Assembly (NCBI RefSeq): GCF_003334355.1
Contig: NZ_QOWP01000002.1
Length of the DNA: 64,000 bases
Direction: 5' to 3' (one strand)
Source of the DNA: Escherichia coli
GTDB lineage: Bacteria > Pseudomonadota > Gammaproteobacteria > Enterobacterales > Enterobacteriaceae
Below, piece after piece: positions 29,101-35,100 of the stretch (position 1 is its first letter; every line of letters begins with the position of its first letter). The position numbers were made by a program.

Positions 29101-32100
29101 CTGCCAGTTGCTGCATAATACGCAACACTTCGCCTACCAGTTCAGGATCGAGCGCCGAGGTAGGTTCATCAAACAGTAAAACTTCCGGTTCCATCGCCAG
29201 CGCCCGCGCGATAGAAACACGCTGTTGCTGACCGCCGGAAAGATGCACCGGATATTTCCCCTGCGCACGTTCGTCTATCCCGACTTTTGCCAGATACTTC
29301 ACCGCCCGCTCGCGCGCTTCCTGCTTGCTCAGGCCCAACACCTGAATCGGCGCTTCCATGACGTTTTCCAGCACCGTCATATGGCTCCAGAGATTGAAGT
29401 GCTGGAATACCATCGTCAGGCGTGTGCGCAGTAAGCGCAGTTGATTTTTATCGGCGACTTTGAGTTGACCGTCTTTGTCGCGCACCAGATTGATCGTCTG
29501 GCCATTGACCACGATCGACCCTTCACTCGGTTTTTCGAGGAAGTTAATGCAGCGCAGAAAGGTACTTTTCCCCGATCCCGACGATCCGATGATGCTTATT
29601 ACATCTCCGGCATTCGCTTGCAGTGATACCCCTTTCAGCACTTCATGTTCGCCGTAGCGTTTGTGCAAATCGATAACGTTTAATTTATTCTCGGACATCG
29701 TATTCTCAGTGCGTTGAAGAAGGTTTCACATGCTTCAACCAGCGTTTTTCCGCTCTGCGAAAGAGGCTGATCAGGACATAAGAGATGATTAAATAGAGCA
29801 CCGCGGCAATGCCGAAGGCGGTAAAAGGTTGATACGTGGCGGCGTTAATATCGCGGGCTATTTTCAGCAGATCCGGCACCGTGGCAGTAAATGCCAACGC
29901 AGTAGAGTGCAGCATCAGGATCACTTCGTTGCTGTATGCCGGTAACGCAATACGCAGCGCAGAAGGCAAAATAATGCAGCGATACATTTTAAAAGTCGAG
30001 AAGCCATAGGCTCTGGCGGCTTCAATTTCCCCATGCGGAACCGAACGGATTGCCCCAGCAAAAATCTCGGTAGTGTAAGCGCAGGTGTTAAGCGTCAGCG
30101 CCAGCACGGTACAGTTCAGGCCACTGCGGAAGAAAGCGTTAAGGAATTCGGTTCCCTTAACAATCTCAAGCGTGTACATGCCGGAATAGAACACCAGCAA
30201 CTGAACATACAGCGGCGTACCGCGAAAAATATAGGTAAATAACCAGATTGGAAACTGGATGTATTTATTACTGGAGACACGACCAATCGCCAGAAACAGC
30301 GCCAGGACTCCGCCTATCACTACCGACAAAATAAGCAGCCACAGAGTGATCGCCACACCAGTAAAGCGATAACCGTCGGTCCACAGCAGCGGTTTCCAGT
30401 ATTCATGTAAGATTTCGATCACAGGTCAGCCCTCTTCACACCCACGGAGTAGCGGCGCTCAAGGAACAGCAGCACACCATTGGAAACAGTGGTGAAAACC
30501 AGGTAAATCACGCCACAGACGATGGCGAAATAGAACGGTTCCCAGGTACTTTTGCCTGCCAGTTGGGTGGCTTTGACCACATCTTCCAGGCCGAGTAACG
30601 AAACCAGTGCGGTAGATTTGAGGATCACCTGCCAGTTGTTGCCAATGCCTGGCAGGGCGTAACGCATCATCGCCGGAAACATGATCCGCCGAAACACTTG
30701 CCCACGAGTAAAACCGAACGCCGTCGCCGCCTCTATATGTCCTTTCGGCACTGCCATAAAAGCACCACGGAACGTTTCGGTAAAATAAGCACCGTAGATA
30801 AAACCGAGAGTGATAATACCAGCGACCATCGGATCGATATCAATCTGCCCGACGCCCATCGCCTCCGTCACCGTGTTTAGCGCAATCTGCAAACCGTAGA
30901 AAATCAGCAGCATCAACACTAAGTCCGGCACGCCACGAATCAGCGTGGTGTACCCTTCGAAAATCAGCCCCGAAAGCCGATTTTGCGAGAGCTTACCGCC
31001 AGCGCCAATTAAACCGATGATTACAGCGAGCACTACAGAGCTGATAGCCAGCTCCAGCGTGACGAGCGCACCCTGTAAAATAACACCTGAAAACCCATAC
31101 AACATGCTGCCTGTCCTGTCGTGTGTGGTGAATTACCGCCTCTTGTCTCCCTCCGGTTACCCGAAGGGAGCGGGCTTTCTTTCACCGATGGCGATTAGCC
31201 ACCATAAACATCAAAATCGAAGTACTTTTTCGCTAATTTCTCGTAAGTACCGTCAGCGCGCATTTCGGCAAAGGCTTTGTTCAGTGCTTCGCGCAGTTCG
31301 TTATCTTCTTTACGCAGGCCCATGCCGGTCCCTACGCCAAACAGTTTTTCATCTTTAACAGACGGGCCACCGAATTTGTAATCTTTACCGACAGGTTGTT
31401 TGAGGAAACCTTCGCTGGCGGCGACCTCATCCTGGAACGCGGCATCAATACGTCCGGCAGTCAGGTCAGAATAAATGTTGTCCTGCCCCTGATACGAGAC
31501 GATTTCAATGCCTTTTGGTGCCCAATGTTCATTACCGAACGTCTCCTGGGTGGTGCCCTGCAATACGCCTACCCGTTTGCCTTTCAGCGACTCGACTGTC
31601 GGCTGAATGTCAGAATTTTTCGCCACCACCAAACGAGAATCGGCAGCGTACAGTTTGTCGGTGAAGGCTATTTCTTGCTGACGTTTTTCCGTAATGGAAA
31701 GCGATGACATGATGGCGTCAATCTTCTTCGCTTTTAAGGACGGGATTAACGCATCCAGCGGATTTTCGACAAACGTACATTGCGTATTGATGCGTTTGCA
31801 TAATTCCTTTGCCAGATCGATATCGAAGCCAACCAGTTCGCCTTGTGAATTTTTTGATTCAAATGGCGCATAGGTCGGGTCGGTACCGATGCGGATGTTT
31901 TGCGGAATCGCAGCAAATGCCGCAGTTGCGCTGGAGAAGGCCAGAACCAGAGAGAGCGATAGCACCAGTTTTTTCATAATGTCCTCAACTGACAGTCTTT
32001 TTATAGGGAATATTTACAGGTTTGTTACACTTATCGTGCCATAAAATTGACCATCAAGGCAAAATATCCCGCCCCGTTAGACGTATTATTTTTCATTAAA

Positions 32101-35100
32101 AATGCTTAAGTATGCATTTCAATGCACCACGATAGTGCAACAAACCTGGCGTGCACCATGATGATCATTCCATCAGGTACAGCTTCCCAGCGACGTATCA
32201 GTCACCGTAGACATTAAAGTCGAAATACTTTTTCGCCATCTTGTCGTAGGTGCCGTCCTGACGCAGCTCGCCAAGCGCCTTATTGAAGGCAGCCGTCAGT
32301 TCAGCATCATCTTTACGTAGCCCTACACCGGTGCCATCACCGAAGTATTTTTTGTCTTTTACTGATGAGCCAGCAAAGGCGAAATCTTTACCAGCAGGTT
32401 GCTTGAGGAATCCTTCGCTGGCAGCAACTTCATCTTGTAACGCAGCATCCAGACGTCCTGCAGCCAGATCGGAATAGACCAAATCCTGGTTGGCATAGGC
32501 CACCACATCCACGCCTTTACTACGCCAGGTCTCGTTAGCGTAAGCTTCCTGGGTTGATCCCTGCAGCACACCAACATGTTTACCTTTCAGTGAATCCAGC
32601 GTTGGCTGAATCGGTGAACCTTTGGCCGCAATCAAACGAGAATCTGCGGCGTACAGCTTGTCGGAGAAGGCAATCTCCTGCTGACGTTTATCGGTAATGG
32701 AAAGCGACGAAATAATAGCGTCGATTTTTTTCGCTTTCAGTGAGGGGATCAGCGCGTCAAAGTCACTGGCAACCCAGGTACATTTCACCTGCATCCGTTT
32801 GCACATCTCGTTACCGAGATCGATATCAAAGCCAACAAAATCACCTTTAGCATCTTTCGATGAGAACGGTGCGTAGGTGGTATCGGTTCCGATACGTACC
32901 GTCTCCGGTAGCGCCGCATAGCTGGAAGCCGCTGTGGAGAGACCGACTAACAAAGACAGAGCGAGAATCGACTTCTTCATACATAACCCTCAAGTGAAAA
33001 TGGCTTTTTTATGTTGTGTATTGTGTTGTGTGTTTGCAGGCTCTTTCATGCAGGTCTTATGCCATCTTGACGACAACAGTAACATTCAACGTTAAATATG
33101 TTAATAAGACGTTGCATTATTGTCCTGAAGTTGAAGATAGCAGGTATAGCGGTTGAATCGCAGCGTTTCGATTGAATGGCAGAAACAAAATGTCGAGGAT
33201 TTGATCGCGGTTGCAAAATTGCCCTGAAACAGGGCAACAGCGGAGTTATGCGCCCTGCCAGCGGGCAAAGAGATCTTCAGGAAGGGTTATCGCAAACTGG
33301 TCAAGAACACGATTAACCGTCTGATTTATCACATCATCAAGGGATTGCGGGCGATGATAAAACGCCGGAACGGGAGGCATAATCACCGCACCGATTTCTG
33401 CCGCCTGAGTCATTAAACGCAGATGGCCTAAGTGCAATGGTGTTTCACGCACGCAGAGCACCAACGGGCGACGCTCTTTCAGCACCACATCTGCCGCACG
33501 GGTCAGTAAGCCATCAGTATAGCTATGGACAATGCCGGAAAGGGTTTTGATTGAACAGGGTAAAATCACCATCCCCAGCGTCTGGAAAGAACCGGAAGAG
33601 ATGCTGGCGGCAATATCGCGCGCATCGTGCGTGACATCGGCTAATGCCTGCACTTCGCGCAGAGAAAAATCCGTTTCGAGGGATAAGGTCTGGCGCGCTG
33701 CCTGGCTCATCACCAGATGCGTTTCGATATCTGTGACATCGCGCAGAACCTGTAATAAGCGCACGCCATAAATCGCGCCGCTGGCACCGCTGATGCCTAC
33801 AATGAGTCGTTTCATAAATAGTTGCCCTGTCAGACTTGCAGGCAGACTTTGCAGGATTTCGGCGGGAGTTGCAAGTCAGGGTGCCAGACCGGCACCCTCA
33901 GCGAAGGCATCATCCTTCGTTATGCATTTCGAGATTTTCCACTTCGTTCTGACGTTGCACTGCTTTGGCGTCATCATTACGTAACGTATCGAGGAAATCG
34001 AGGTAGCCCTGATCAACGTCTTTGGTGACGTAGACGCCGTTGAATACCGAGCATTCAAACTGCTGAATATCCGGGTTTTCCGCGCGGACGGCTTCGATCA
34101 GATCGTTCAGATCCTGGAAAATCAACCCGTCAGCACCGATGATCTGGCGAATTTCATCCACTTCACGACCGTGAGCGATTAGCTCCGTGGCGCTCGGCAT
34201 ATCAATACCATAAACGTTCGGGAAGCGAATTTCCGGTGCCGCAGAAGCGAGGTACACTTTCTTCGCTCCGGCTTCGCGTGCCATCTCGATAATCTGCTCA
34301 GAAGTGGTGCCACGGACGATGGAGTCGTCGACCAGCAGGACGTTTTTATCGCGGAACTCGGCGCGGTTGGCATTCAGTTTACGGCGCACGGACTTACGAC
34401 GCAGCTGCTGGCCCGGCATGATAAAGGTGCGGCCAACATAGCGGTTTTTAACGAAGCCCTGGCGGTACGGTTTGCCCAGAATACGAGCAATTTCCAGCGC
34501 GATATCACACGAGGTTTCTGGGATCGGGATCACCACGTCGATATCCAGATCTTCCCATTCGCGGGCAATTTTCTCGCCCAGTTTCGTGCCCATATTCACA
34601 CGCGCGCTGTAAACGGAAATTTTGTCGATGAACGAGTCCGGGCGAGCAAAGTATACATACTCAAACAGGCACGGATTGCTGACCGGATTGTCAGCACATT
34701 GACGGGTAAACAACTGCCCTTCTTCAGTGATGTAAATCGCTTCGCCCGGCGCGACGTCACGCAGGAAATCAAAGCCCAGCGTATCGAGCGCTACGCTTTC
34801 GGAAGCGACCATATATTCTGTACGGTTCTCGTCAATATCACGTTTTCCCAGTACCAGCGGACGAATCCCGTTTGGATCGCGGAAAGCAACCATACCGTGG
34901 CCGATAATCATCGCCACACAGGCATACGCGCCGCGGATTAAGCGGTTTGTGGCAGCAATGGCAGCGAAAATATTGTCGGCTTCCAGCGGGTAGTGGCGGA
35001 AATTGTCCAGCTCGCTGGCGAAGATATTAAGCAGAATTTCCGAGTCGGAAGTGGTGTTGATGTGGCGGCGTTTTTCTTCAAACAGTTTTTTACGCAACTC

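Follow-up and report, generated by a model that had tools for sequence, protein, structure and literature searches.

A 64,000-nt stretch of the Escherichia coli chromosome (NCBI RefSeq assembly GCF_003334355.1, contig NZ_QOWP01000002.1), hereafter called the window, contains the classical argT-hisJQMP locus for the ATP-binding cassette (ABC) uptake of basic amino acids and histidine. We consider it very probable that argT and hisJ are old duplicates whose products share the HisQMP2 translocator, that argT has a genuine NtrC/sigma-54 promoter, and that hisJ has a promoter of its own. The element at issue, TGGCAT-AAGAC-CTGCA (TGGCATAAGACCTGCA), lies upstream of argT and is the known NtrC/sigma-54 promoter of that gene. 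A preliminary description of this DNA had proposed the tandem paralogs, their separate promoters and the sigma-54 match at argT; these proposals are already in the literature, and the finding is an ordinary and correct one. Both ABC transporters and nitrogen-regulated sigma-54 promoters have a founding model in this locus. Here, a reading of the sequence alone recovered a real, experimentally bound sigma-54 promoter, which makes the case a positive control.

The -24/-12 element lies on the argT strand, 68 nt before the ATG, with the GG of the -24 half at 33063-33062 and the GC of the -12 half at 33051-33050. Compared with TGGCAC-N5-TTGCA, it has two mismatches among the 11 specified bases, neither of them in the GG or GC dinucleotide. 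As a bare pattern the match is within chance: TGGCAY-N5-YTGCA was observed once in the 64 kb against 0.37 expected, and 32 of 100 shuffled sequences contained it at least once. The significance of the motif therefore comes from the weight matrix, from conservation and from published binding. When both strands of the window were scored with a matrix trained on 11 other sigma-54 sites of E. coli, the argT element had the top score of ~128,000 positions. Conservation was followed in 81 loci sampled from 80 Enterobacteriaceae species, about 30 genera. In all 81 of them, the 250 nt before argT contain a single copy of TGGCAY-N5-NTGC, at a distance of 50-89 nt from the ATG (median 67). In a 20-genus alignment the TGGCA and TGC columns are invariant, where the mean column identity of the region is 64%. 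The identical 17-mer, ATGGCATAAGACCTGCA, is site OS22 in the chromatin immunoprecipitation sequencing (ChIP-seq) study of sigma-54 in E. coli, assigned to argT at a distance of 58 (Bonocora et al.); its motif score of 9.46 is among the lower ones in the part of the ChIP-seq table examined. The top matrix score, the conservation in 81 of 81 loci and the identity with a published in vivo sigma-54 site together lead us to regard the motif as real, and the good match that had been claimed upstream of argT is confirmed.

Other published work on binding and expression points the same way. In E. coli, an RpoN peak was located in the argT-ubiX spacer by genomic SELEX (systematic evolution of ligands by exponential enrichment; gSELEX). 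In Salmonella, the same argT sequence was bound in a sigma-54 study by chromatin immunoprecipitation on microarrays (ChIP-chip). The Salmonella ChIP-chip paper names argT among four operons whose sigma-54 dependence has been demonstrated by experiment, and gives a 3.5-fold higher argT expression in the wild type than in an rpoN mutant when a constitutive activator was supplied. NtrC ChIP-seq in nitrogen-starved E. coli found both argT and hisJQMP to be bound and up-regulated. An argTp-lacZ fusion at the lac locus, its fragment limits not given, responded 2.4-fold to deletion of glnK, while the argT transcript changed 3.2-fold by quantitative PCR. Finally, argT is described as having a sigma-54 promoter that NtrC activates when nitrogen is limiting, and hisJQMP as having a sigma-70 promoter repressed by ArgR (PMC6640053), in agreement with the separate promoters that had been proposed. 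By this mechanism, sigma-54 RNA polymerase would wait at argT as a closed complex and fire only with phosphorylated NtrC, under nitrogen limitation, and the uptake of arginine, lysine and ornithine through the lysine/arginine/ornithine-binding (LAO) protein would join the nitrogen-scavenging response. The promoter of hisJ itself, in the 220-bp argT-hisJ spacer, would be sigma-70 dependent and weakly repressed by ArgR, as given in the literature.

The argT-hisJQMP locus of Salmonella Typhimurium, studied by the Ames laboratory (promoters argTr and dhuA), has the same gene order, an identical TGGCATAAGACCTGCA and an ArgT that is ~91% identical. Its argT is likewise listed as an experimentally shown sigma-54/NtrC operon, and GcvB targeting has been verified there. 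Other transporter promoters under NtrC/sigma-54 control, those of glnHPQ, gltIJKL, glnK-amtB and yhdWXYZ, are like that of argT in having a GG-N10-GC promoter before a binding-protein gene and in appearing in the same NtrC and sigma-54 ChIP-seq lists. The argT promoter differs from them in having T instead of C at the sixth -24 position and C instead of T at the first -12 position. It also has no consensus NtrC site within the preceding 250 bp, and its NtrC enrichment is low (5.4-fold).

Several observations weigh against reading the element as an NtrC-activated promoter. Within 250 bp before argT, E. coli has no NtrC site with fewer than five mismatches, and other genera rarely have one; in the published NtrC ChIP-seq, the peak at argT is weak (5.4-fold). 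In RNA sequencing (RNA-seq) of nitrogen-replete cells, densities with rpoN+, with the Region I deletion and with the vector were 127, 598 and 550 for argT and 109, 651 and 703 for hisJ (Schaefer et al. 2015). Thus argT is ~4-fold higher without sigma-54 (127 versus 550) and hisJ behaves alike (109 versus 703), so that in nitrogen-replete cells sigma-54 is net repressive and not activating. In addition, the direct dependence of argT on rpoN and ntrC in E. coli rests on secondary citations.

The paralogy of the two binding proteins is clear from their alignment. ArgT and HisJ align by BLASTP without gaps, with 175 of 259 residues identical (68%) and 84% scored as positives (E = 9e-139), so the earlier figure of about 70% over the full length was a fair one; 70% is also the value given in PMC6640053. 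Aligned without gaps, the coding sequences have 68.6% nucleotide identity, and just 43% of third codon positions are identical, an indication that the duplication is old. The tandem argT and hisJ pair was present in 80 of 80 Enterobacteriaceae species retrieved. A duplication that also spanned the promoter was considered and rejected: the 160-nt upstream regions align no better than shuffles (130/500), the ribosome-binding region excepted. Each protein is recognized by its own NCBIfam equivalog model, ArgT by NF011586 (582.5 bits, cutoff 440) and HisJ by NF011965 (599.4 bits, cutoff 459), and each falls below the cutoff on the model of the other (425 against 459 and 435 against 440). The nearest solved structures to ArgT are the Salmonella LAO-binding proteins 1LST and 2LAO (E ~1e-147), while HisJ matches 1HSL and 1HPB, the E. 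coli HisJ (E = 6e-155). With full-length matches above curated cutoffs and linkage to hisQMP, both belong to the LAO/HisJ subfamily.

That both proteins feed the HisQMP permease, another earlier proposal, agrees with the gene order and with the literature. The hisQ, hisM and hisP genes are contiguous on the same strand directly 3' of hisJ, spanning 28925..31105 (-), and the HisQMP2 translocator is common to HisJ and ArgT (PMC6640053). An ancient tandem duplication would have given rise to ArgT, the LAO protein for lysine, arginine and ornithine, and to HisJ, for histidine and, weakly, arginine, both of which would hand their substrate to a single translocator. The segment 31000-33300, annotated with hisQ, hisJ, argT and ubiX, was matched in all 5426 complete E. 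coli genomes, in several of them at 100%. A similar arrangement is found in artJ/artI with artPQM, where two paralogous binding proteins are supposed, by analogy, to share one translocator. ArgT and HisJ match the ArtI and ArtJ models at 177-191 bits, below the cutoff, which makes them distant members of the same family. ArgR is reported to control artJ, artPIQM and hisJQMP alike, but the art promoters, unlike that of argT, are sigma-70 promoters controlled by ArgR and Lrp, with no sigma-54 element (PMC6640053).

The preliminary description had also set the nitrogen-regulated expression of argT apart from that of hisJ. The part of this claim that concerns promoter types stands, but nitrogen control extends beyond argT, and hisJQMP is also under NtrC control. 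The argT-hisJ spacer carries a near-consensus palindromic NtrC site, TGCACTATCGTGGTGCA, which with one mismatch is the sole match with at most two mismatches to TGCACCA-N3-TGGTGCA in the 64 kb (32123-32139). Of the 81 loci scanned, 73 have NtrC-like sites with at most three mismatches in this spacer. A second, half-consensus sequence, ATGATCATCATGGTGCA, has its centre 29 bp from that of the strong site; its right half is perfect and its GGTGCA block is conserved in the spacer alignment, and we read it as a putative further NtrC site. The published NtrC ChIP-seq peak at 2424941-2425021, assigned to hisJQMP, is 23.7-fold enriched and hence stronger than the argT peak. It maps to window positions 32108-32188 and covers both spacer sites (MG1655 coordinates, U00096.2, are obtained by adding 2,392,833 to window positions, an offset checked with the published argT coordinates). 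Transcription from argT may contribute as well. A terminator scan found no convincing intrinsic terminator 3' of argT, the argT-hisJ spacer having only a hairpin that is weak and 5 bp long, so transcripts from the argT promoter probably read into hisJQMP; argT-hisJQMP is also treated as one operon in several papers. In the published nitrogen-replete RNA-seq, the expression of argT and hisJQMP shifts in parallel.

A sigma-54-like motif, TGGCAC-GATAA-GTGTA, is also found upstream of hisJ, where the 17-mer ATGGCACGATAAGTGTA (32026-32042) lies 48 nt before the hisJ ATG. Its -24 half is perfect, while its -12 dinucleotide is GT and not GC. TGGCAC is present in the hisJ upstream spacer of 81 of 81 loci and lies 47-51 nt before the ATG in 77 of them. 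The -12 GC is kept in 41 of the 81 and is GT in all Escherichia loci; Salmonella, by comparison, keeps the GC (TGGCACGATAGCCGCA), and Citrobacter, Franconibacter and other genera have the full consensus TGGCACGATAACTGCA, which outscores the argT site. Counted from the start that the hisJ motif predicts, the spacer NtrC sites lie ~115 and ~145 bp upstream, a spacing that corresponds to the classical glnAp2 geometry. No sigma-54 occupancy at hisJ is reported in the E. coli ChIP-seq (with supplements), the gSELEX or the Salmonella ChIP-chip data, which are published maps not described as coming from nitrogen-limited cells. The motif could be a weak active promoter, a relic, or a sequence conserved for another reason.

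Four other explanations have to be weighed against the preferred one. That the argT match is a functionless chance occurrence, as the 0.37 expected per window and the 32% of shuffles with the pattern might allow, is hardly conceivable in view of its top matrix score, its correct strand and distance, its invariance in 81 loci and its occupancy by sigma-54, in vivo and in vitro, in three published data sets. A quite unlikely possibility is that the element acts mainly as a brake, with sigma-54 holoenzyme at +6..+22 blocking the sigma-70 argT promoter in nitrogen-rich cells and NtrC activation being secondary or minor in E. coli. Schaefer et al. 2015 place the sigma-54 motif at +6..+22 of the sigma-70 start site and class argT under 'binding motif downstream of promoter'. 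They report that rpoN+ expression is 23% of the vector control and that in vitro the argT promoter gives less sigma-70 transcription when sigma-54 is present. However, the invariance of the -24/-12 element, found 50-89 nt from the ATG in all 81 loci, argues against this, as do the positive sigma-54 dependence of Salmonella argT once an active enhancer-binding protein is supplied and the binding by NtrC and up-regulation of argT in nitrogen-starved E. coli. A sequence-only scan detected no sigma-70 promoter-like site in the argT-ubiX or the argT-hisJ spacer, so that the sigma-70 promoters of the literature could not be placed in this way. Moreover, since hisJ shows the same rpoN effect with no bound sigma-54 site, some of that effect may be indirect. 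Braking and activation are in any case compatible and not exclusive: at an NtrC-activated argT promoter, the bound sigma-54 holoenzyme probably occludes the sigma-70 promoter just upstream of the argT site under nitrogen-rich conditions.

The remaining two explanations concern the spacer NtrC sites. If hisJ had a working sigma-54 promoter of its own at 32026-32041, fed by these sites, the paralogs would not be differently wired. This would account for a motif that ranks third in the window and whose TGGCAC is kept in all 81 loci, at 47-51 nt in 77, for the many genera in which the full consensus exceeds the argT score, for the glnAp2-like geometry of the strong site and the half site, and for the location of the strongest local NtrC ChIP peak. 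We nevertheless think it unlikely, for the essential -12 GC is GT in Escherichia and GC in 41 of 81 loci, the three occupancy data sets report nothing at hisJ, and the promoter given for hisJ in the literature is of the sigma-70 type (PMC6640053). Alternatively, the spacer sites might enhance the argT promoter by DNA looping from ~0.9 kb downstream, with hisJQMP induced through read-through only. Studies of glnA have shown that NtrC can act from either side and from kilobases away. The one good NtrC site of the window (32123-32139) sits at +907 relative to the argT start, good sites upstream of argT are rare across genera, sigma-54 is reported at argT only, and the weak NtrC ChIP signal on the argT promoter could be a looping cross-link. 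Against this, the argT fragment at the lac locus was still Ntr-responsive (2.4-fold versus 3.2-fold, with the fragment limits not given), and most genera have an intact hisJ sigma-54 motif at the canonical distance from these sites, whose conservation is thereby explained with no role at argT. Enhancement of argT from downstream is, on balance, quite unlikely. The features discussed here and below are collected in Table 1.

Table 1. Genes and regulatory features of the argT-hisJQMP locus, in window coordinates
Feature	Position	Strand	Basis
ubiX	33246-33815	-	Open reading frame (ORF)/annotation
Sigma-54 -24/-12 element of argT, TGGCAT-AAGAC-CTGCA	33049..33064	-	Pattern, weight matrix, conservation
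Predicted argT 5' leader, 58 nt	32981..33038	-	Start ~33038, predicted from the -12 position
CA-rich element complementary to the R1 seed of GcvB small RNA (sRNA)	33012..33038	-	Duplex energy
argT, lysine/arginine/ornithine periplasmic binding protein, 260 aa	32198..32980	-	ORF and RefSeq argT
Putative second, half-consensus NtrC site	32152..32168		Right half perfect
Near-consensus palindromic NtrC site	32123..32139		argT-hisJ spacer, 1 mismatch
Inverted-repeat arms, Escherichia only among the sequences examined	32017..32031 and 32134-32148		15 nt, 93% complementary
Conserved block, ArgR operator candidate of the hisJ promoter	32080..32118	-	20-genus columns
Sigma-54-like motif TGGCAC-GATAA-GTGTA	32026..32041	-	Third-ranked weight-matrix match in the window
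hisJ, histidine periplasmic binding protein, 260 aa	31195..31977	-	ORF, NCBIfam
hisQ, of the membrane/ATPase component set with hisM and hisP	30419-31105	-	ORF, NCBIfam HisQ, 479 bits, above cutoff
hisM	29706-30422	-	ORF, NCBIfam HisM, 464 bits, above cutoff
hisP	28925-29698	-	ORF, NCBIfam HisP, 576 bits, above cutoff

In the argT-hisJ spacer, the block TGCATACTTAAGCAT-N-ATGAAAAATAATA has many columns that are invariant or nearly so among 20 genera. It is a probable ArgR operator made of two degenerate ARG boxes, with putative box positions read against the ARG-box consensus. Such an operator fits the one reported for hisJ, the control region of which is bound by ArgR (PMC6640053).

The same spacer contains an inverted repeat that, among the sequences examined, was seen only in Escherichia. 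Its arms are 102 nt apart and would be ~20 nt long if one indel is allowed; one of them falls in the hisJ -12 region, the other in the left half of the NtrC site and its flank. The spacer RNA folds with a z-score of -7.9, dominated by this repeat, and z-scores below -3 were obtained in 25 of 29 genera (mononucleotide shuffles). These low values are most simply attributed to the palindromic NtrC and ArgR sites in the DNA. A conserved riboregulator in the spacer was considered and rejected, as RNAalifold gave eight invariant pairs and no compensatory change. An Rfam scan of 30900-33400 at a permissive E-value likewise returned no match to a described cis-RNA or sRNA family. The inverted repeat may reflect a templated mutation of the quasi-palindrome type that destroyed the -12 GC at hisJ. 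It can be imagined that a change specific to the Escherichia lineage removed this GC while making the -12 region an inverted copy of the NtrC flank, and that the retained, strongly occupied NtrC enhancer now drives a -12-defective sigma-54 promoter missed by ChIP, or serves argT from 0.9 kb downstream with read-through into hisJQMP; we regard this scenario as quite improbable.

The argT mRNA carries a predicted leader of 58 nt, a length derived from the motif geometry that agrees with the 58 of Bonocora et al. The leader has a Shine-Dalgarno sequence, GAGGG, at 32987-32991 and is essentially unstructured (-3 kcal/mol, z = +0.9). Its CA-rich element, UGCAAACACACAACACAAUACACAACA, is present as a block in the 20-genus alignment and is complementary to the R1 seed of the GcvB sRNA. 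Paired with GcvB nt 63-92, it gives a duplex of -36.8 kcal/mol, compared with -16.8 +/- 3.4 for shuffles, none of 1000 being as good. The gcvB sequence was that of MG1655 and the calculation was restricted to R1; with full-length GcvB, RNAduplex produced unrealistic whole-molecule duplexes with the leaders, and these were set aside. The argT mRNA thus has the accessible C/A-rich stretch, complementary to the R1 seed, that marks a GcvB target, with which the sRNA would pair. The regulation itself is known from the literature: among the R1 targets, argT has been verified in Salmonella and is given as conserved in E. coli, where a second GcvB site of the operon, that for hisQ in the spacer between hisJ and hisQ, has itself been verified (PMC9299463). 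The crude full-length duplex calculation did not single out the hisQ site. Other R1 targets, for example dppA, oppA, gltI and livJ, also have a CA-rich unstructured leader complementary to the G/U-rich R1, and argT shows nothing unusual in this respect.

The CA-rich leader consists, at 33009-33032 (+), of an imperfect tandem of a 12-nt unit, which reads TTATGTTGTGTA and TTGTGTTGTGTG on the plus strand. This tandem differs in length between genera: E. albertii has a shorter one, and Trabulsiella and Pseudescherichia have expanded versions. The variation suggests slippage that may alter the extent of GcvB pairing.

Upstream of the argT promoter, three blocks with invariant columns among 20 genera lie at 33196-33206, 33134-33142 and 33100-33115 (-). 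They read GATCA-ATCCT, TG-TATC-T and GCAAC-N6-TT-AC, and none of the three matches the NtrC consensus; they might be weak NtrC sites or bind IHF, ArgP or Lrp. Just past the ubiX stop, a 9-bp GC-rich hairpin (UUGCCCUG-UUU-CAGGGCAA) followed by UUUU lies at 33218-33238 (-). This hairpin was absent from the output of the generic terminator scan. It is probably the terminator of cvpA-purF-ubiX, and as such would insulate the argT promoter from upstream transcription.

A stable hairpin with the core GCUCCCUUCGGGUAACCGGAGGGAG was also seen at 31138-31175 (-), directly 3' of hisJ, in the spacer that holds the published GcvB site for hisQ. This 89-nt hisJ-hisQ spacer folds at -33.2 kcal/mol (z = -3.3), and the hairpin is probably why hisQ is ~3-fold lower than hisJ in published RNA-seq.

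Elsewhere in the window, the second-best match to the sigma-54 matrix, CTGGCACAACATCCGCA, is at 54258-54274 (+), within smrB and close to the 3' end of that gene. Searches by coordinate and by sequence of the main text of the sigma-54 ChIP-seq paper on E. coli did not turn it up. The surrounding segment is variable, with 895 of 5426 E. coli genomes covering at least 80% of 53900-54700, and it adjoins a gene for a StfH/YfcO fimbrial adhesin. Directly 3' of hisP, an ORF of 296 aa at 27838-28728 (-) may resemble the YfcI/Rpn family of recombination-promoting nucleases.

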